Shown one piece after another: positions 4,836 through 63,637 of a DNA stretch of 64,000 nt. The notes under the pieces were generated by a model, which was given only the letters and a program-made list of their open reading frames with translations, had not been told where the DNA came from and ran no database searches. The position numbers were made by a program, and so were the translations under genes. This DNA is from a virus (taxonomy: Duplodnaviria > Caudoviricetes). Position 1 is the stretch's first letter. Every line of letters starts with the position of its first letter. Where the stretch lies: the IMG/VR virus record IMGVR_UViG_3300017780_003104, positions 96,001-160,000 of that record. One strand, given 5' to 3'.

Positions 4836-5435
4836 GTGAATCCTAATATTTACGAATTTTTCGCTGCGTTCTCTTATGATCCCAAATTCTATTTACACTT
4901 ACCAGTTCTTTGGACTGTTTCAATTGATGGAGTAACGGAGAGATCAATTAATAATGTTTTACTTGATGCTGGGGAACAATGGATGGCTAAGACAGATCCA
5001 TGGAAAATGTCTAGAAGTGGAAATATATTAGTAGCACAGGAAGTATCACTACCACAAGAATCATCAAATTTCTCAGCATTAGAATTTGGTAGCGGGATGG
5101 GTGGATACTTACCGGGATATGCATTAAATAATAGAACTAATTTTTTAGATAGATCATTTTCAATTAATTTCATTGAAACTGAATTAGACATAGAACATAA
5201 TTTCTTCAGACCATGGTTAATTGCTCTTGGTGTTAAAGGGTTGATAGAATATGGACCATCACTAAAATCTAGTATAGAGATTAAACAATATACCAATGAT
5301 GGAATATTGATACGAGGATTCCGATTTAATAAAGCATTTCCAACTGCAATTGAAGGTTATACCCTTAATTATGAAAATACTGACATTCCAATTAAATCGG
5401 TAACATTTGGTTGTCAGAATTATGAACAAATATGA
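4836..5435 (+). CDS. Tail-tube-family baseplate/tube initiator (gp54-like)
   Basis: Tube-like pattern (FSINFIET..F.RPW...IEIKQY...FPTAIEGYTLNY..VTF); synteny; GTG start 5 nt after TAAATA. Confidence 0.5.
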   Translation: MNPNIYEFFAAFSYDPKFYLHLPVLWTVSIDGVTERSINNVLLDAGEQWMAKTDPWKMSRSGNILVAQEVSLPQESSNFSALEFGSGMGGYLPGYALNNRTNFLDRSFSINFIETELDIEHNFFRPWLIALGVKGLIEYGPSLKSSIEIKQYTNDGILIRGFRFNKAFPTAIEGYTLNYENTDIPIKSVTFGCQNYEQI

Positions 5436-41090: not shown

Positions 41091-41324
41091 ATGAAAATCA
41101 TCACCACACGCCTTAGAGTCATGCGATACAATTATCGAAATGATTGGAAAGCTGTTCAAATTCTACTCAAATATTATTATATTTTTGGCTTTAAATTTTT
41201 CGAAGTAGAATTAGATAGGGAAGATGTTCCAAGGCATGTGGTTCTTGCCAATGCATGTTTTGGCGATACGAGTGGATGGACTTCAAAATTTATGCCCTTT
41301 GAAAAAGGAGGATGGAAAGACTAA
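41091..41324 (+). CDS. Hypothetical protein
   Basis: Motif-headed. Confidence 0.6.
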   Translation: MKIITTRLRVMRYNYRNDWKAVQILLKYYYIFGFKFFEVELDREDVPRHVVLANACFGDTSGWTSKFMPFEKGGWKD

Positions 41325-41325
41325 A

Positions 41326-41961
41326 ATGCAAACTCGTTATAAATACAACAGAACAAAACATCTTCCATGGTCCCCCGGTGCAACTTCAGATGATAAGATT
41401 CTTAAGGACACTTCTTGCTTTAATGGTAAGACGGTAATCATTACTGAGAAGATGGATGGTGAAAATTCCACTCTTTATAGTGATTATTATCATGCACGTT
41501 CATTAGATGGTAGGGATCATCCTTCACGTTCATGGATTAAACAGTTTCATGCATCTATTAAGAATGACATTCCAGAAGGATGGCGTATATGTGGTGAAAA
41601 CCTTTATGCAAAACATTCCATTGGATATGATAAGCTAAAATCATATTTCTATTGTTTCAGTATTTGGGATGATACTAACTATTGTTTATCTTGGAAAGAC
41701 ACTGTAGAGTTTTGTCAGTTGTTAGGTATTGAACATGTTAAGGTTTTTAAGACTTTGAAGTGGGACGAATTAACAGTAAAGAATTTCTTAATTGATTCTG
41801 AAAAAGAGGAAGGTTATGCTGTTCGTAATGTTGGTGGATTTCTATATGAAGACTTTGGAAGTAACGTAGCGAAATGGGTAAGACCAAATCACGTAACCAC
41901 TTCGACCCATTGGCTACATTCGGAAGTGATACCAAACAAGTTAATTAAAACCGAAGTATAA
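41326..41961 (+). CDS. RNA ligase family protein
   Basis: KYNRTKHLPWSPG, TEKMDGEN, CGEN, EGYAVR and AKWVR; ATG at 41326 is in frame with track ORF 41224. Confidence 0.8.
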   Translation: MQTRYKYNRTKHLPWSPGATSDDKILKDTSCFNGKTVIITEKMDGENSTLYSDYYHARSLDGRDHPSRSWIKQFHASIKNDIPEGWRICGENLYAKHSIGYDKLKSYFYCFSIWDDTNYCLSWKDTVEFCQLLGIEHVKVFKTLKWDELTVKNFLIDSEKEEGYAVRNVGGFLYEDFGSNVAKWVRPNHVTTSTHWLHSEVIPNKLIKTEV

Positions 41962-45661: not shown

Positions 45662-46279
45662 ATGGGAATACATTCTAAATATCCGAATAACGCTGGAATA
45701 TACAAATTAACATGCACCAACAATAATAAAATATATATCGGAAAATCTCTCAGTTTAAATCGAAGACTTAATGTATATAAAAACTATAAAGTTCATTGTA
45801 GAGCTACTGGATATTTAAAAAATACCATATTAAAATATGGTTGGGATTCATTCAAAGTTGAGATTTTAGAAAATTTTGATATTCAAAACAAAGAACTAGA
45901 TAATCAATATCTATTAGATCGAGAATCATACTATATTGAGTTATACGATTCCACCAATCCCGATATAGGGTTTAACGTGTGTAAGTATTCTTTTGATGCC
46001 ACAGGGAGAACAATGCCAGAAGATTTCAAAATAAAAACCGGATTGAGAATGCGTGGAAATACTATAAATAAAGGACGAGTAATGTCCGAGGAACATAAAG
46101 AAAAACTTAGACAATCCAATCTTGGGAAACCAACTTCAGAAGAGACTAAAGAAAAAATTAGAAAGGGTAATATTGGAAGAATCCATAGACCCGAATCTAT
46201 AGAAAAAATGAGAAAAGCGAAGACCCTTATGTGGGAAGAAAAAAGAAAACAAAAAGAAAATAAACAAATAGAAAACTAA
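45662..46279 (+). mobile_element. Free-standing GIY-YIG homing endonuclease with NUMOD3 repeats
   Basis: AGIYKL...KIYIGKS, RESYYI and GFN; SEEHKEKLR, SEETKEKIR and PESIEKMR. Confidence 0.9.
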
Positions 46280-47739: not shown

Positions 47740-48657
47740 ATGCGACAACATATCCTCTGGAAAACTACCACTGAATATCCTTACATTCTAAACTTAGATT
47801 TAGGGTTCACACCTTATAAAAAAGGGTTGGATCTCTTATATAAGAAATTTGAATTTAAGGGTGGTGAACCACATTTTCAAATTACCACCCCTTGTGAGTA
47901 TGCTGCACAATCTCATCTTATCATCACACAACGATATAACACGGTCGGTGATCTATTTGATATCATTCTTGCTAACGATGCTGCTCGACGTATGGGCTTT
48001 AGGAACATTAAGTTGATCCTACCATACTTCCCTGCTGCTCGTCAAGATCGAGTATGTAATGAAGGCGAACCTTTGACAATTAAGGTCTTTACTGATATGA
48101 TTAATGGTTGCGGGTTTGATGAAGTAGTTATCCTATGCCCGCATAGTGAAGTGACACCCGCATTGATTAATAATGTTACAGTTCTTGATGAGCATGAATA
48201 TATAGAGAAGGCACTGGAAACTTATAACCATGATCAGATCAATATCGTATGTCCTGATGCTGGTGCTGGTAAGCGTGTGGGTAAAATTGTAGAATTTCTA
48301 TCGAACGGTCCAAAGAAATTCAAGACAGTAAACCTTATTCGCTGTGAAAAGGTTCGTGACGTTAAGGATGGAAGTCTTAAGGGTTTCTTTGTTCAAGCAG
48401 ATGACCTTGGTGGTTGGCCCACTCTCATTTGTGATGATATTGTATCTCTTGGTGGAACCTTCATTGGGCTTGGAGAAGTTCTTAAGACTAAGAATTGTGG
48501 TAAGCTTATGTTGTTTACTGCTCACGCTGATTGTATCGAGGGTCTTGATAAGATGGCGAATTACTTTGACCATTTCTATACAACAAATTCTAAGCGTAAT
48601 TGGGGAGAACTATCCTTGTCTCCCAATAAGGTGACTTGTTTTGATATTAACTTATGA
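47740..48657 (+). CDS. Ribose-phosphate pyrophosphokinase-like protein (Adps candidate)
   Basis: FKGGEPH, LPYFPAARQDR, HSEV, VCPDAGAGKR and ICDDIVSLGGTF. Confidence 0.9.
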   Translation: MRQHILWKTTTEYPYILNLDLGFTPYKKGLDLLYKKFEFKGGEPHFQITTPCEYAAQSHLIITQRYNTVGDLFDIILANDAARRMGFRNIKLILPYFPAARQDRVCNEGEPLTIKVFTDMINGCGFDEVVILCPHSEVTPALINNVTVLDEHEYIEKALETYNHDQINIVCPDAGAGKRVGKIVEFLSNGPKKFKTVNLIRCEKVRDVKDGSLKGFFVQADDLGGWPTLICDDIVSLGGTFIGLGEVLKTKNCGKLMLFTAHADCIEGLDKMANYFDHFYTTNSKRNWGELSLSPNKVTCFDINL

Positions 48658-48660
48658 AAA

Positions 48661-49437
48661 TCAAACCGCATCTATTCTATCCCACTTCCTATTCATATAG
48701 GGAATATTAGAATTAGTGATTAGTGATTTTAAAATTCTAGAATCCTTTTTCGGAACAGTCAAAATAACCCAACTATCTTTAGTAATTCTTATAGTTGAAT
48801 TTATATCGTAAAATGTTTTGAGATTGTGGGATATTGCTTTAAGATTATCTGTCCAATTTGGGTGTATTTTAATCTTAATATTTTGATTAGTCTTATCCAC
48901 ATACCCATCCCCATCTATTAATCCAGTTATGAAATATTTCAACTTATCAGGTGTTAAAAATTCAATTATGTTAAATGGATTATATGTCTTTTTCGGAACG
49001 ATAGAAAACCTTTCAATCAATCTTCCCAAAGTATAATAATCATTTATAGCAATTCTACTCATTGTATAACCATCAACATTCCAACCATTTTCTCTATACA
49101 CATCAACAATATCACAATTTGTTAATTTTGAAAATCTTTCTAGATGTTGTTTATCGTGAATACTAATCGATAATATCAACTGTTTTTGGGTTATACAACC
49201 ATCTGCGGTAATGAATCCCCACCAATAACAATTCTCATCAATATCTAGGTTTTCCAACCATGTTATATCTTTTTTACTTTTGGTAACTTTTTTATGCAAC
49301 TTATACGTTTTAGCCTTCCATCTAATTTGATCATTAGTTTTATCCTTTAGATGTGTCACTAAATCGTGAGTTTTCATAAACTCATAATTTTCAATAAGAA
49401 ACTGTTCTTGTTCTCGACTCCATTTTCTTTCCTTCAT
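48661..49437 (-). mobile_element. Free-standing LAGLIDADG homing endonuclease
   Basis: Two motifs, YWWGFITADG and FITGLIDGDG; TAAATA-atagt-ATG. Confidence 0.88.
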
Positions 49438-49492: not shown

Positions 49493-50998
49493 ATGATTAC
49501 AAATCCCTTAACACAAACAGATGCTTATAAATTATCTCATCACGGGTTTATGGACCCATTGACGGAATATATTTACGCTAACCAAACACCAAGAGGTAGT
49601 AGTTACCTACCAGTTCTGAAACAATTTTATGATGATAAGTCCGTGATCTTCGGGTTACAACATTTCATCATTGATTTCCTAATTAATGATTATAACACTG
49701 GATTCTTCAATCTCCCAAAGGAGACTGTGATCAAGAAATTCAAACGTAGGTGTGATGCATATCTAGGAAAGGATAATGTTGATATGACTCGTTTTGAAGA
49801 ATTACATGATCTTGGATATCTTCCAATTCGTATCAAGGCACTACCAGAGGGTAGCAGAGTTAATGTTAAAGTTCCATATTTTACCATTACTAATACTCAC
49901 CCTAAATTTGCTTGGCTTACTAATTATCTTGAAACTATTATTTCCTGTGAAACTTGGAAACCGATTACCAATGCCACTATCGCATTTGAATTCCGTAAGA
50001 TGTTTAATAAGTTTGCTATGGAAACAGTTGGAAATACCGATGGTGTCTGTTTTCAAGGACATGGATTTGAATTTCGTGGTATGAGTGGGAGACACGATTC
50101 TGCTATTAATGGTGCGGCATTCCTTTTAAGCTTTATGGGAACAGATACTATTCCTGCTATTGATTTACTTGAAGATTATTATAATGCTGATGCCGATAAA
50201 GAACTTATTGCTGCTTCTGTTCCAGCATCCGAACATAGCGTAAGTAGTCTTGGAACTGCATTAACAGGGGAGTTGGATTTCTTTAGAGATGCCATCACAA
50301 AACATTATCCAACTGGTATCGTTAGTCTTGTTAGTGACACCTACGACTACTTTAAAGTCATCACTGAGTATGCAACAATTCTTAAAGATGATATCTTAAA
50401 TCGTCAACCCAATGAACTTGGATTAGCTAAAGTTGTATTTAGACCTGATAGTGGAAATCCGGTCAATATTATTTGTGGTGATCCTAATGCTCCTATTGGT
50501 AGTAATGAATACAAAGGCTCCGTTGAGTGTTTATGGGAAATCTTTGGAGGGACTGTATCTGAACAAGGTTATAAGACATTAAACCAAAGGGTGGGATTAA
50601 TCTATGGAGATTCTATCACTCAACAAAGAGCGTATGATATTTTAACTCGTCTCAAAGAAAAAGGATTTGCATCTAATAATATTGTATTCGGGGTTGGGTC
50701 TTATACTTTAAATCTATTAACGCGTGATTGTTTGGGTATGGCTATTAAGGCTACTTGGGCGCAAGTTGATGGTGTGGGTTACGATATTTATAAAGATCCT
50801 ATCACTGATGATGGTCTTAAAAAGTCTGCCAAAGGTCGTCTTAGGGTTGATCTAATTGATGGTGAATATGTTTTGAAAGATCAATGCACGGAAGAAGAAG
50901 AATCTGGAGGAGAACTCAAGACAGTTTTTCTTGATGGTAAATTGATTGTTGATCAAACACTTACTGAGATTCGTGCAAGAGTCGCAACACAATTCTAA
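49493..50998 (+). CDS. Nicotinamide phosphoribosyltransferase-like protein (Namat/Nampt)
   Basis: TDAYKLSH, HGFEFRG, ASEHSV, SLVSDTYD, FRPDSGNP, YGDSIT and KKSAKG. Confidence 0.93.
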   Translation: MITNPLTQTDAYKLSHHGFMDPLTEYIYANQTPRGSSYLPVLKQFYDDKSVIFGLQHFIIDFLINDYNTGFFNLPKETVIKKFKRRCDAYLGKDNVDMTRFEELHDLGYLPIRIKALPEGSRVNVKVPYFTITNTHPKFAWLTNYLETIISCETWKPITNATIAFEFRKMFNKFAMETVGNTDGVCFQGHGFEFRGMSGRHDSAINGAAFLLSFMGTDTIPAIDLLEDYYNADADKELIAASVPASEHSVSSLGTALTGELDFFRDAITKHYPTGIVSLVSDTYDYFKVITEYATILKDDILNRQPNELGLAKVVFRPDSGNPVNIICGDPNAPIGSNEYKGSVECLWEIFGGTVSEQGYKTLNQRVGLIYGDSITQQRAYDILTRLKEKGFASNNIVFGVGSYTLNLLTRDCLGMAIKATWAQVDGVGYDIYKDPITDDGLKKSAKGRLRVDLIDGEYVLKDQCTEEEESGGELKTVFLDGKLIVDQTLTEIRARVATQF

Positions 50999-52432: not shown

Positions 52433-53230
52433 ATGAATAACAAAGACGGACTAGGAGACAGAATAAAAAATTACGAAAGTATTTCAGAGCATTACTTTCT
52501 ACCAAAGACTCCGATTATTATTCGCGTTGATGGTAAAAGTTTTCATACGTGGACTAAAGGTTGTCAAAGACCTTTCGATCAAACGCTGATCACTTGTATG
52601 TTTGAGTCTGCTAAAGAAGTAGCTAAACAAATGCAAGGTTGTAAAGCTTTGTATGCTCAATCGGATGAAGTAACATTTGTTCTTACTGATGATACTACTC
52701 TTGATTCACAACAATGGTTTGGCGGTAGACAGAACAAGATTGAAAGTGTTACTGCTGCAATGATGACAGCATACTTTAATAAGAATTGGTTACATTCTGT
52801 TCCTAGACATATGGTTGATTATGATTTTCACGTAGATTACACCCCCGCTATCTTTGATGCCCGTGCTTTTCAATGTCCTAAAGATGATGTTGCTAATGTC
52901 TTTCTATGGAGAGTAAAGGATTGGGAACGTAATAGTCTCAATATGTATTGTGAACAGTTCTTCTCTCATAAGGAACTGCAAGGTCAAGGTCGTGCTGATA
53001 GACATGAAATGCTTCATAAGATTGGACATAATTGGGCTACTGAATGCACCGATCAACAAAAGAATGGTTCGTGGTATTCTCCGGGAAAACCTGATAAGTT
53101 CAACCTCACTAATTACTATGATATCGATGATTATATCTTTCGTGACGGTATTGCTTATGTAATGTCAAAGAAGATGCAATCAGAGGATTTAAGTTGGATG
53201 AGTAAAATGATTGTAAAGAGAATGGGTTAA
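52433..53230 (+). CDS. thg1: tRNA-His guanylyltransferase / Thg1-like 3'-5' polymerase
   Basis: RIKNYE, IIRVDGKSFH, YAQSDEV, FDAR and WRVKD.ERNS. Confidence 0.92.
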   Translation: MNNKDGLGDRIKNYESISEHYFLPKTPIIIRVDGKSFHTWTKGCQRPFDQTLITCMFESAKEVAKQMQGCKALYAQSDEVTFVLTDDTTLDSQQWFGGRQNKIESVTAAMMTAYFNKNWLHSVPRHMVDYDFHVDYTPAIFDARAFQCPKDDVANVFLWRVKDWERNSLNMYCEQFFSHKELQGQGRADRHEMLHKIGHNWATECTDQQKNGSWYSPGKPDKFNLTNYYDIDDYIFRDGIAYVMSKKMQSEDLSWMSKMIVKRMG

Positions 53231-54673: not shown

Positions 54674-56329
54674 ATGTTTGAGAATAAAAGAAACGCAGAA
54701 GTCGTGACTGTTAAATCAGTTACTCGTAAGGAAGTTAACGCATTCCTAAACAATGCTAAAGCAGAATCATCCAAGACTCGTTCTGGTAACGGGGCATTGA
54801 AATTCAGTTCAAGTGGTGATTCGTTTACCGATCAGTTTACTAAGGCTGGTAAGTATAAGGAACCTCGTAAGTTCTCTCAAATCGCACAAGATTGTGAAAT
54901 GTTGTGGGGTGAAGACCCTCTCAAGTGTGTGAAGTTCGCATTGTTTCTTCGTACTATTCCTCGCGTAGTTAATCTTCCTGATGGAAGTAAGACTGAACTT
55001 CCTCAAAAGGGAACCGAGTTGAAGCATGAAGCAATTATGCGTATGCTTTGGTTGAGTGATAAGTCTCCTCAAGCATTCTGGAATAACATTCTATTGTTTG
55101 TTTCTCTTGGATCTTGGCACGATGTTTTCACTATGCTTCAATATGATCTTAGCTACAACGGTTGGAATAATCGTAAGCTTGATTGGGATAAGTTTGGTGA
55201 GTTGATTCTTGCTGGTCTTAACAATAAGAACACCTGTGATCTTATTAAGAAGTATCTTCCTCAAATCAAGTCTCGTAGTCAAGCTACGACTATTGATGCT
55301 CAATCCAACAATGCTATTGCTAAGTGGATTTGCTCTCTAGTCTTTGGTAACAAGGAAAGCGCATCTTCATACAAGGCTTATCGTAAGATCAAGACTAGTG
55401 GAACCGCGCATGATTGGCAAAAGCTTATCTCCCAAAAGAGAATGAGTGAATTGGATTTCAATAAAATTCATGGTCGTGCTCTATCAATTCTTGTTAAGAG
55501 TAAGTTCTTAAAGAACCAAGGACTTAGCGATAAGTATGCATCTTGGATTACTGCACCTACCACCAAGGAAGTTAAGTATACTGGATTCGTCCATGAACTC
55601 TTCGAAGGTAACTGGAAGAACGATAAGAACAACGAAGCAACTATCAATAAGCAATTCGATACTCTTGTTCAAAAGGCAAGAACTAATGAAGTTACTGATT
55701 TGATTGTCGTTCGTGATACTTCTGGATCGATGTCTTCAATTTGTCCCGGCACTAAGTCTTCATGTCTTGATGTTGGAAAGGCAATCGCTCTATACTTTAG
55801 TGAATTCCTTCAAGGAACCTTTGCGGGTCATTGGATTGAATTCAACTCTGATGCTAAACTTCAAAAATGGGTTGGTCAAACTCCCGTTGATAAGTGGAAG
55901 AATGATAAGTCAAGCTTTTATGGTGGAACTAACTTTCAAAGTGTTGTTAATCTTCTCGCTAAGATGAAGAAAGAGGGAACACCTGAAAGTGATTTCCCTA
56001 GCGGTATCCTTTGCATTTCCGATGCAGAATTCAATCCTACTTCATTAGGTAAAACTAATGTTGAGACTGCGTTGACTACTCTTCGTAATGCTGGATTCTC
56101 CAAGGCTTATGTTGATAACTTTGTGATTATTCTTTGGAACCTTCAAAATAGTTATTATGGTAAAGGGTCTGGTGAAAAGTTTGAGACTGGTAAAGAAGTA
56201 AACAACGTTTACTATCTGGGTGGGTATAGTGCCTCCGCAGTTAGTTTCCTTTCAGCTAAGATCAAGACAACCTATGATCTAATCAACGAGTGTCTTAATC
56301 AGGAAGTTTTGAATATGGTTGAGATTTAA
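54674..56329 (+). CDS. Ro60/TROVE-like (DUF2828-type) RNA-binding protein with a C-terminal vWA domain
   Basis: Helical N-terminus (KFALFLR, GSWHD, KYLP) and vWA MIDAS elements VVRDTSGSM, GGTNF and ISDAEF; TTGACA-16-TAAGAT-N6-ATG upstream. Confidence 0.72.
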   Translation: MFENKRNAEVVTVKSVTRKEVNAFLNNAKAESSKTRSGNGALKFSSSGDSFTDQFTKAGKYKEPRKFSQIAQDCEMLWGEDPLKCVKFALFLRTIPRVVNLPDGSKTELPQKGTELKHEAIMRMLWLSDKSPQAFWNNILLFVSLGSWHDVFTMLQYDLSYNGWNNRKLDWDKFGELILAGLNNKNTCDLIKKYLPQIKSRSQATTIDAQSNNAIAKWICSLVFGNKESASSYKAYRKIKTSGTAHDWQKLISQKRMSELDFNKIHGRALSILVKSKFLKNQGLSDKYASWITAPTTKEVKYTGFVHELFEGNWKNDKNNEATINKQFDTLVQKARTNEVTDLIVVRDTSGSMSSICPGTKSSCLDVGKAIALYFSEFLQGTFAGHWIEFNSDAKLQKWVGQTPVDKWKNDKSSFYGGTNFQSVVNLLAKMKKEGTPESDFPSGILCISDAEFNPTSLGKTNVETALTTLRNAGFSKAYVDNFVIILWNLQNSYYGKGSGEKFETGKEVNNVYYLGGYSASAVSFLSAKIKTTYDLINECLNQEVLNMVEI

Positions 56330-56918
56330 ATATCTTAAACTTTCTATCTAAAAAGAGAGTGGAGTCTTTGTAAATAAAGTTTCCGATGCGACCAACTTTA
56401 TCTAGAATCAATAGACAAGCCGACTGATTTGGAAAAATTTACAATGACAATAATAACAGCAAAATTAGAAGAGGTTGACAAATCTAAATTTCATGATTAA
56501 ATAAAGATCCGATGAGGTTTCGGTAGCTTCCTATGGCGAACAAATAAAACTACCAATAAGATTGCTTCAGCAAATATATTTTTATTTAAGGAAAAACAAA
56601 AGCAATCTGATAAGAGGACAAACTACAAATACAAAAAATCAAACGTCCTCTGATAAGAATAAGTAACAGCAAAAACAATAAAAAATAAAAGCAAATATGC
56701 TAAACGATGAAAGTCGTCCGGGTATCCTCACCATATTAGAGGTTGTAATATGGAGCTTAGAAGGGAGTCAATCTTAACTTATTCTGATAAAGTCATAAAC
56801 TGCAAATAAAAATACTATTATGCAAAATAGCCTGTCGGTGGGTCCGAGGTAACTAAAACGGTTCGATTCCGTATCTATGACTTGCATAAAATCTCTTCAG
56901 CAAATAACGGAACGTAAA

Positions 56919-56996
56919 ACTCCCATACGTGTGGTTCAAATCCCGCTGCTCACACTTTATTAAAAAGTGGGTATAGCCAAGTGGTAAGGCAGGAGT
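56919..56996 (+). ncRNA. Circularly permuted tRNA-like domain (unit 5)
   Basis: 3' half ACTCC-CATAC-T arm-TGCTCAC precedes 5' half GTGGGTA-TAGCCAAGTGGTAAGGC-A-GGAGT. Confidence 0.8.
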
Positions 56997-57048
56997 CCAA
57001 AAACAATGAGATTTAATAGAAATACTCCAGCAAATAACGCAACAAGGA

Positions 57049-57127
57049 ACCGTGTGTCGAACGTTCGATTCGTTCTCTCCCACCATATAAGTAAAATGGG
57101 AGGTAGCTCAGTTGGTAGAGCAACGGT
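57049..57127 (+). ncRNA. Circularly permuted tRNA-like domain (unit 6)
   Basis: ACCGT-GTGTC-GAACG TTCGATT CGTTC-TCTCCCA-CCA precedes TGGGAGG-TAGCTCAGTTGGTAGAGC-A-ACGGT. Confidence 0.88.
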
Positions 57128-57462
57128 AAGCAAAAAACATAGTATTTCGATAGGATTATATTCAGCAAATATACTACTCAACTGTTAATTGAAAAAAGTA
57201 AAAGTAATCCGATAAGAATTTCAGCAGCATAATATCGTAACTATAACGACTCTAAGGTAGCTTAGGTTTGGGAAACCAATACGGCGATGGTAGATAGGTA
57301 AACTAAGTTCTTTATAGAATATGTAAACCCTACGGGACGAACGATTGAATATTTATATATTCTTTAATGTGTCAGTGAAAGATGAAATTCTGATAAAATT
57401 AGCAACAGCAAACCAAACAAAAATTTGACTTTTAATCAAACAATAAAATGCTAATTTGATAC

Positions 57463-57741
57463 ATGGAAATATTTTATATCATAACACTATCATTCATATT
57501 GAATGTATTATGGTCAATGATGGGTAGAGCTAGAAATAGAAACAACCTCATTTATCATGGTGTATTAGTATTTCTATCAAATCTATTATGGATTCTTTTT
57601 ATGAAAAAGTTAATGACTTCCGATACGGAATCTTTAATATATGGAAGTATTGGTGGGACTATTGGTGCCATTTGTGGACAACCATTATCAATGTTTATTG
57701 AACGTGTGTTGAATGCTAAGAGTGATGATCACATAGAATAA
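57463..57741 (+). CDS. Small membrane protein
   Basis: Three hydrophobic segments; starts 2 nt after the RNA array. Confidence 0.65.
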   Translation: MEIFYIITLSFILNVLWSMMGRARNRNNLIYHGVLVFLSNLLWILFMKKLMTSDTESLIYGSIGGTIGAICGQPLSMFIERVLNAKSDDHIE

Positions 57742-57742
57742 T

Positions 57743-58042
57743 ATGGAAGACTACTGGACAAAAAATAATCTAATCAAACCCGCATCAAGGATCGTATGTG
57801 CTGCTAATAGGCATAAAGAATCTGGTAGGATTGTCTGTGGTGCTCGTCATTGGGATAATGTAATGCGTTCACAAAAACTTGAATCAGAAACCTTTAATAA
57901 TTGGGATCAAGGATTCATCAATCAATTTGGTGAATGGTTGAATAGAGAAGAAGCGTGGGTAATTGCCGAAGAGCAGGGACAGATTAGAAATCTTTGTTAC
58001 GACAAACAGACGGGTTACTTATTCAGCGAAAATTTATACTAA
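57743..58042 (+). CDS. Conserved phage hypothetical protein
   Basis: RIVCAANR..RIVCGARHWD, QGFINQ and LFSENLY. Confidence 0.7.
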   Translation: MEDYWTKNNLIKPASRIVCAANRHKESGRIVCGARHWDNVMRSQKLESETFNNWDQGFINQFGEWLNREEAWVIAEEQGQIRNLCYDKQTGYLFSENLY

Positions 58043-63562: not shown

Positions 63563-63637
63563 GGCATCGTAGCTCAATGGAAGAGCAACACCCTTCTAAG
63601 GTGTGGGTTGAAAGTTCGAGTCTTTCCGGTGTCACCA
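63563..63637 (+). tRNA. tRNA-Arg(UCU) with encoded CCA
   Basis: GGCATCG/CGGTGTC acceptor, GCTC/GAGC D-arm, ACACC-CTTCTAA-GGTGT anticodon arm, GAAAG-TTCGAGT-CTTTC T-arm, ACCA. Confidence 0.95.

Follow-up and report, generated by a model that had tools for sequence, protein, structure and literature searches.

We describe here unit 7, a small RNA element in a tandem array encoded by a freshwater jumbo phage (IMG/VR record IMGVR_UViG_3300017780_003104), which we classify as a module of Asn anticodon-arm type in an RNA array linked to Ro60 and as a variant of the Y-RNA-like partner RNAs of Ro60. The analysis covers a stretch of 64,000 nucleotides (nt) of that record, positions 96,001 to 160,000, referred to below as the window. 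Unit 7 carries the seven-nucleotide anticodon loop of tRNA-Asn(GUU) on a scaffold that is not that of a tRNA, and begins 824 nt downstream of, and on the same strand as, the gene of a 551-residue protein with a predicted Ro60 fold. Comparison of the loop, its stems and its relatives across ~190 loci encoding relatives of this protein indicates that the hairpin is under selection, and unit 7 may serve as bait for nucleases that cut tRNAs in the anticodon arm. Y RNAs are known as mimics of the tRNA body, with variable modules of largely unexplained purpose; in the present case this module is an anticodon arm of readable identity. The few and specific identities found over the ~190 loci are the same as those cut by an anti-phage nuclease that has been studied in depth, which makes the idea directly testable.

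An anticodon arm of Asn type on a non-tRNA scaffold

The earlier note on this DNA had described a hairpin at 57178-57192 (TCAA-CTGTTAA-TTGA with TACT/AGTA flanks) and read it as an isolated Asn-type anticodon stem-loop. Both its coordinates and its description proved exact and the Asn identity is borne out, the loop being conserved in orthologs and equal at 7/7 positions to that of tRNA-Asn(GTT) of the phage itself, which ARAGORN places in another part of the genome. The pairs 30-40 and 31-39 are likewise common to the unit 7 arm and the phage tRNA-Asn, and the fifth stem position (C57177/A57193) is a mismatch. The interior of unit 7 is a short arm made up of an outer helix of 4 base pairs (bp), an internal loop that is asymmetric (1-2 nt 5' and 3-5 nt 3'), a stem of 4-5 bp and the loop. 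It is preceded by a scaffold core motif, CAGCAAATA in unit 7, which occurs in nearly every unit of every locus and whose columns C, G, C, A and A are invariant (alignment A3). All parts of the unit are listed with their positions in Table 1.

Unit 7 has no complete tRNA-Asn cloverleaf with an acceptor end, the Rfam tRNA model gave no match in the array, a search with all Rfam families at E <= 10 over 55800-58000 gave no match on 57153-57214, and at gathering scores no family was found on any small unit in 12 sources. Nor do we claim that it is a copy of the phage tRNA-Asn gene: the 11-mer common to the two lies within chance, as common words of at least 11 nt were obtained in 81/300 shuffles. 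As a separate observation, the consensus of all junctions between units, C-U-G-A-U-A-A-G (57211-57218), equals the loop plus flanks of the phage tRNA-Ile(GAU) (CTGATAA), which may be coincidence.

Conservation of the loop on changing stems

Orthologs of unit 7 were recognised by position, flanks and closing helix. The loop CTGTTAA is kept at locus L108 (protein 83% identical to that of the window, stem TTCAA/TTGAA), at L110/L111 (79%, TCAA/TTGA) and at L113 (68%, TTCA/TGAA, one A-U pair being removed on both sides), and these orthologs together with unit 7 itself have four different closing helices. At L007 (85%, TTCA/TGAA) the loop reads TTGTTAT and thus keeps the GTT triplet; only L008 (76%, stem TCA/TGA with an A·A closing mismatch) has changed it, to GAT within TTGATAA. 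The refuting outcome named in the earlier note, a loop not conserved among homologs, is not what these loci show. In eight GUU-type units the closing helix is 100% paired with compensatory change at 7/7 pairs, and in the arm 2/4 pairs change on both sides. The outer helix TACT/AGTA is kept in L108, L110, L113, L008 and, as TAC/GTA, L189, and swapped for TGC/GCA or GC/GC in L168 and L130. We also considered and rejected a kissing or antisense pairing of the loop CUGUUA with UAACAG beside the core motifs, which is found in the window and L108 and missing from L110 and L113.

Within the window, unit 3 (56606-56658) has the closing helix AGAGGAC/GTCCTCT, identical to that of an L007 unit (4976-5038) carrying TCAA-ACGTTAA-TTGA; its core, CTACAAATA, is degenerate and its hairpin is missing. 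Unit 3 looks like a decayed GUU-type unit that would have arisen by deletion between two AAAC-GT repeats.

Few and specific anticodon-like loops across related loci

Across the related loci a parser identified 375 small units on the + strand vs 12 on the - strand, and covariance model R1, built from the eight GUU-type units and applied at a cut-off of E <= 0.01, gave 229 matches, all on the + strand and none on the other. Unit 7 is its best match in the window (74.6 bits, E 1.4e-12), by construction, being a seed of the model. Pairing over 115 distinct family members amounts to 100% in the closing helix and 92.5% in the arm, in an alignment that was fitted to the model and leans towards structure. 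When a loop was called anticodon-like if its seven nucleotides fitted N-U-NNN-R-N and its stem had 4 bp or more, 108/310 unique small units carried one vs 13.5 in shuffles, an eight-fold excess. The triplets are few in kind: TTT was observed 26 times (0.33 in shuffles), GTT 8 (0.12), TGT 6 (0.12), GCA 6 (0.10), CTT 4 (0.17) and CGT 2 (0.10), and GTC and GTG were not observed at all (0.09 and 0.06 in shuffles). A model-based census, whose seeds bias it towards GUU, ranked them in the same order (UUU 27, GUU 12, UGU 8, CUU 7). In terms of tRNA identity, the related phages carry Lys (UUU/CUU), Asn (GUU) and Thr (UGU/CGU) loops, with a few of Arg UCU, Tyr GUA and GCA type. The loops have the consensus C32 U33 N N U36 A37 A38, and U39 follows in 26/56 of the loops with U36, unit 7 among them.

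The exact loop CTGTTAA also recurs on other stems, namely CAAT/ATTG (L130), AAAC/GTTT (L135) and CAGA/TCTG (L189), as well as in L030 and L177, each with a closing mismatch, giving at least seven different stems; ATGTTAA variants are seen in L108, L168, L172 and L113. The relatives concerned are distant, the Ro60-like proteins of L130, L168, L116, L030 and L056 being 50-64% identical to that of the window and among themselves, and those of L135, L172, L177 and L189 showing 52-55% identity to the query. Since the loop is kept, and recurs, while the stems around it change, we regard the hairpin as a recurrent, selected module. The Asn-type hairpin and its loop thus appear, on comparative sequence grounds, to be under selection as a tRNA look-alike and not to be a chance feature.

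An explanation without tRNA mimicry would have the loop constrained in some other way, for example by pairing of its CUG with the CAG of the core motif, or would make it an AU-rich loop that matches by coincidence. A random 7-mer of array composition equals one of the 21 distinct anticodon loops of the phage with P = 0.0023, a figure that is not negligible over many hairpins; minimum free energy (MFE) folds of L113 and others do pair the core motif with the loop, and the 11-nt identity to the phage tRNA-Asn is, as said, within chance. In the window, however, 2/3 small-unit loops equal a phage tRNA loop (unit 7 that of tRNA-Asn, unit 9 that of tRNA-Lys(TTT)), which at this P per loop renders such a coincidence improbable. 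Pairing with CAG is moreover impossible for the Lys- and Thr-type loops, and neither the recurrence on at least seven stems beside proteins 50-64% identical nor the eight-fold excess over shuffles is what this explanation predicts. Finally, L113 and L116 have larger tRNA-like units in which a GUU-type arm occupies its natural position, with a variable region and then a T arm after it. Taken together we consider an origin without mimicry improbable.

Which tRNA-reading enzymes would be addressed is a separate matter, and here the earlier note was only partly upheld. It had seen in the array a library of targets and not a single mimic, and this stands: compared across the ~190 loci, the cargo is a small and specific set of anticodon-like loops (Lys, Asn and Thr, with few Arg, Tyr and GCA) on a common scaffold, among which the Asn-type look-alike is conserved. 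It had also linked the loop to enzymes specific for QUN anticodons, namely colicin E5-type ribotoxins and Tgt. Read in this way, the unit would draw off the former or serve the latter as a substrate or sink, and this part is not supported. Colicin E5 cuts the Asn, Asp, His and Tyr tRNAs, tRNA-Asn thus being among its targets, and U33-G34-U35, the minimal identity element of bacterial Tgt, is present in the loop; a Tyr loop, CTGTAAA, also occurs in two units elsewhere (L031, L070), the only two with GUA. Yet the Asp (GTC) and His (GTG) loops occur in 0/310 units, the commonest loops (UUU, CUU) lack G34, no TGT-family gene was found in the phage genome, and the L008 ortholog has altered U35, which would destroy both recognitions, while the unit itself was retained. 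We therefore hold a QUN-directed decoy to be very improbable.

Several further unit types were seen in passing. Units with an anticodon arm, a long variable arm and a T arm (L120 4965, L177 4657, L116 3237, L019 5767, and window unit 4 at 56789-56887) resemble the 3' two-thirds of class II tRNAs, and several of them have Ser loops (GCU, UGA); an anticodon arm with AUGUUAA is also part of a permuted tRNA-like unit in L113 (~5025-5160). Another common class of small units, seen in many loci, is marked by apical loops such as AUUGGUA, UUUUGGU and AUUGGAA that resemble tRNA D loops (A-R-Y-Y-G-G-U-A), examples being L011 5159-5224, L026 5668-5731, L128 4633 and window 56559-56614. Sub-threshold matches to the Dictyostelium Class I RNA (RF01414) were obtained at window 56560-56609 (30.2 bits) and L187 4234-4291 (39.3 bits); its gathering score of 41.5 was reached in 0/12 sources. 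Class I RNAs have in common with the present units a terminal stem and then a motif ending in ACAGCAA, and DUF2828-type proteins are annotated in eukaryotes too; a connection of Class I RNAs with this protein family is conceivable. In L013, a contig from one related phage, the Ro60-like gene has a hatchet ribozyme upstream of it (390-540; RF02678), which at 75 bits exceeds the gathering score.

The neighbouring protein has a predicted Ro60 fold

In Pfam the 551-residue protein matches DUF7788 alone, over residues 344-525 in its C-terminal part, with no TROVE domain, and a profile search of the sequences in the Protein Data Bank (PDB) with the protein family gave no match, which is why its identity was sought by fold. 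An AlphaFold (AF2) model made from 30 homologs (predicted local distance difference test score, pLDDT, 87) was compared with the PDB by Foldseek, and the top 11 matches were all Ro60/TROVE structures, aligned over the full length with E values of 8e-8 to 1e-4 and template modelling (TM) scores of ~0.5; the best matches include Xenopus and human Ro60, Deinococcus Rsr and the Ro60 of Thermus phage phiLo. The modelled protein thus matches the Ro60 fold, a HEAT-repeat ring plus a vWA domain, and is presumed to be the protein partner of the array. On the RNA side, unit 6 gave the only match, a sub-threshold one, to the Rfam YrlA model (RF02553; 33 bits vs a gathering score of 69, E 9e-5), covering only model positions 23-85, on the permuted body of T arm, acceptor and D arm. 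If the predicted fold is right, the locus is a Ro60-type ribonucleoprotein (RNP) locus with many partner RNAs.

Comparison with known systems

A close parallel is offered by the YrlA/Y RNAs bound by Ro60/Rsr (RF02553; Chen et al. 2014, PMC4201824), which like the units described here are small structured RNAs beside a Ro60-fold gene, several per locus, and combine a protein-binding stem with a module that imitates tRNA. The module itself differs, in that YrlA imitates an acceptor stem with its T and D arms and lacks an anticodon arm (PMC4201824), whereas unit 7 mimics the anticodon arm only and is without a YrlA-type T arm, acceptor-like stem or D arm; a tRNA-like body is found in units 5 and 6. 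The terminal helix of unit 7 covaries, but CAGCAAAUA and the GAUA linker differ from the Y RNA motif, and the junction YCYGAUAAG is only loosely like the UCCGAU in the 5' strand of Y RNAs. Unlike YrlA, the arrays comprise ~nine or more units, and unlike the Ro60/Rsr partners of Y RNAs the window protein has no Pfam TROVE membership by sequence. In the literature searched, including PMC4201824, no unit that mimics the anticodon arm alone was found, and in that on DUF2828 and on anticodon-stem-loop decoys arrays of this kind are not described.

Thermus phage phiLo (PMC12135203; PDB 9KOP, 9L5Y) also encodes a Ro60-fold protein, among the best structural matches of that of the window, together with partner RNAs, and a counter-defence role was proposed for them. 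Its two Yrl RNAs were found via a CGAA motif and tether PNPase, and neither an anticodon-loop mimic nor an array grammar was reported (PMC12135203). In coliphages, gp130 of Bas63 is Ro60-like by structure and was shown by experiment to counter the Ppl defence (preprint 10.1101/2024.10.10.617714), a defence not known to target tRNA. Distant Felixounavirus homologues of the window protein (~23% identity) lie directly upstream of tRNA genes, as does gp130, which is probably one of them. In Felixounavirus phage nataliec the homolog is followed by ordinary tRNA genes and no CAGCAAA-type array, and the coliphages are therefore no direct model for the RNA part of the system. Distant homologs of the Ro60-like protein occur in hundreds of cultured phages, and the cultured Leptolyngbya phage Lbo-JY46 (PP438436.1) combines a protein of 43% identity with the same array grammar and Lys-type arms, which makes the system experimentally reachable.

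Two further systems share the anticodon element. Phage T5 escapes PARIS by means of its own Lys, Thr and Asn tRNAs (PMC11464382, PMC12409363), and these, which counter a nuclease of the anticodon arm, have the specificities Lys UUU, Thr UGU and Asn GUU that also occur among the array loops. T5 thus supplies intact, functional tRNAs in place of the cleaved ones of the host, whereas unit 7, being no more than an arm mounted on a scaffold other than that of a tRNA, has no capacity to decode; full tRNA-Lys, tRNA-Thr and tRNA-Asn genes are also present elsewhere in the genome of the window phage. In E. coli the operator of the thrS mRNA mimics an anticodon arm and is read by ThrRS in place of a tRNA. 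Like unit 7 it is an isolated hairpin with an anticodon-like loop of 7 nt, but it is a cis-regulatory element of an mRNA leader with one specificity and no Ro60 or array context.

A candidate role as bait for defence nucleases

We propose that unit 7 acts as one module of a tandem array of Y-RNA-like RNAs partnering the adjacent Ro60-fold protein, in which the scaffold would bind the Ro60-like ring and the arm would be shown as bait. Its likeliest clients would be host enzymes that read anticodon loops with U36-A37-A38, with defence tRNases of the AriB (PARIS) type as leading candidates; the RNP would titrate or hold the nuclease and so spare the tRNAs needed by the phage, and unit 9 (Lys) would have the same mode of action. 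We put the chances at even that an RNP of this kind, with unit 7 as an anticodon-arm bait for defence nucleases, exists. The decoy mechanism is plausible and as yet unproven, its function being one that we infer.

AriB is the Toprim nuclease of PARIS and cuts tRNA-Lys(UUU) > Thr(UGU) > Asn(GUU) > Thr(CGU), all of which have U36AAU39 in common, and inhibition by some viral tRNAs was considered possible by the authors of that work (PMC12409363). It fits the arrays because their loop spectrum (UUU >> GUU, UGU > CUU, CGU) and the shared U36-A37-A38 match these published targets: AriB-target triplets (UUU, UGU, GUU, CGU) make up 42/89 anticodon-like loops vs ~5% in shuffles, and the Asn-type loop of unit 7 has U36-A-A-U39 (GUU then U A A U). 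The more specific proposal, that a Ro60-like ring with interchangeable baits (Lys UUU, Asn GUU, Thr UGU/CGU) provides matched decoys against Toprim-type anticodon-arm nucleases such as AriB, is a tentative one, and in our estimate the balance tilts against it. If true, it would amount to a modular, RNA-based anti-defence sponge whose specificity evolves by the swap of a 7-nt loop. It would also suggest a third answer of phages to tRNA-cutting immunity, RNA baits on a protein ring, beside spare tRNAs and repair enzymes.

A number of observations weigh against the bait reading or parts of it. Binding of the scaffold by the Ro60-like protein is assumed, and the scaffold (CAGCAAAUA and the GAUA linker) is unmatched by the Rfam YrlA model. 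The exact Asn identity is not strictly kept, the close relatives L008 and L007 having GAU for GUU and U32/U38, respectively. The arm is AU-rich and thermodynamically marginal: its 29 nt alone are predicted to be unfolded (MFE 0, RNAfold), shuffles fold as well as the entire unit does (z = -0.04), and several orthologs have a different pairing as their MFE fold, so that the arm would need protein or tertiary contacts to form. In run X19, the sole metatranscriptome with this phage, two contigs fall on the stretch, at 56184-56406 and 56807-57069, and neither covers unit 7; the two may stem from DNA carry-over, and the lack of one over unit 7 is no proof that its RNA is absent. With regard to the nuclease, AriB needs contacts beyond the anticodon loop, given that a T5 tRNA-Lys supplied with the E. 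coli cleavage site was still uncut (PMC12409363), and an isolated arm may therefore escape recognition. Much else in the arrays lies outside the AriB target set (GCA, UCU, GUA and D-loop-like loops, bodies of T arm plus acceptor, and a 23S-like piece), and an anti-PARIS role can therefore not account for the entire array. No host assignment was obtained from the 12 genome-collection loci, all of them contigs of metagenome-assembled genomes resembling binned phage DNA.

The main rival to the bait reading is a tether in the manner of Y RNAs, by which the Asn-type arm would recruit to the Ro60-like ring a tRNA-binding enzyme useful to the phage, such as a class IIb aminoacyl-tRNA synthetase, the machinery for N6-threonylcarbamoyladenosine at position 37 (t6A37), an RNA ligase or Thg1-like repair enzyme, or an exonuclease. 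The RNP would then be specialised for the surveillance or repair of ANN-decoding tRNAs. The modification t6A37 goes with ANN-decoding tRNAs (U36), and the U36-A37-A38 common to the loops is a hallmark of tRNAs that decode ANN codons and bear it; the region also holds genes for an RNA ligase and a Thg1-like enzyme, and YrlA is itself a substrate of tRNA-modifying enzymes. There is also precedent in the Ro60-Y RNA-PNPase assemblies of Deinococcus and Thermus phage phiLo (PMC4201824, PMC12135203). Against this, RtcB and TGT genes were not found in the phage genome, and a tether leaves unexplained why UUU, GUU and UGU dominate over other ANN anticodons. We judge it unlikely, if a serious competitor.

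Layout of the locus and genome

The source record is 211.7 kb long with terminal repeats and 22 tRNA genes (ARAGORN), and the phage is found repeatedly across freshwater metagenomes. The array (Table 1) consists of abutting hairpin units, all on the + strand, and no credible open reading frames (ORFs) were found between 56330 and 57460. Each unit is built on the same scaffold, a closing helix of 7-9 bp that starts with AGA/GGA and ends with UCU/UCC and, a few bases past its 5' strand, the CAGCAAAUA motif; the interior is variable, and a GAUA linker joins consecutive units throughout the arrays.

Table 1. Positions of unit 7, its parts and the surrounding features in the window.
Feature	Positions	Strand	Remark
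Upstream region: RNA ligase, Thg1-like, PRPP-synthase-like, NAPRTase/NAMPT-like (NAD salvage), GIY-YIG and LAGLIDADG homing-endonuclease-type genes	41224-41961, 45662-46279, 47740-48657, 48661-49437 (-), 49493-50998, 52433-53230		upstream region
Gene of 551-residue Ro60-fold protein (TROVE-like HEAT ring plus vWA)	54674..56329	+	predicted fold
Promoter-like TTGACA, 17 nt, TAAATA	56474..56502	+	before array; direct reading of sequence
Array of abutting small-RNA units with common scaffold grammar	56510..57460	+	parser and covariance model
Unit 7, whole (closing helix, core motif, arm, linker)	57153..57214	+	
Closing helix, 5' strand GGATTAT	57153..57159	+	pairs with 57204-57210
Scaffold core motif CAGCAAATA	57163..57171	+	in nearly every unit, every locus
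Outer helix, 5' strand TACT	57172..57175	+	pairs with AGTA 57197-57200
Anticodon-stem-like helix, 5' strand TCAA	57178..57181	+	pairs with 57189-57192
Seven-nt loop CTGTTAA	57182..57188	+	tRNA-Asn(GUU) anticodon loop C32 U33 G34 U35 U36 A37 A38
Anticodon-stem-like helix, 3' strand TTGA	57189..57192	+	U39 completes U36-A-A-U39
Outer helix, 3' strand AGTA	57197..57200	+	
Closing helix, 3' strand GTAATCC	57204..57210	+	
GATA linker to unit 8	57211..57214	+	unit 8 closing helix begins 57215

A promoter-like element precedes the array and is also present downstream of the Ro60-like gene in L107-L113. A sigma-70 and terminator scan of the window listed neither this conserved element nor any terminator, the former because the scan accepts only second hexamers that end in T. 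In L110 the ortholog of unit 7 is the final unit and is directly followed by an intrinsic terminator. A relative in run X5 (21.5-kb contig, ~90-95% identical) is without exactly unit 6 (57015-57148) and has units 7-9, from which it follows that units are gained or lost whole and that array content turns over unit by unit; the same relative has 105 other letters in place of 56330-56546.

The region upstream of the Ro60-fold gene looks like an RNA-repair and counter-defence neighbourhood. As to tRNA genes, the ARAGORN scan of the window gave a single one, at 63563. Outside the window (genome G000 C1 195989-196079 and 196159-196232), ARAGORN calls the phage tRNA-Asn(GTT), which at 91 nt has an unusually long variable region, and also a tRNA with a CTA anticodon, of the amber suppressor type, yet the ORFs of the window read well under code 11.

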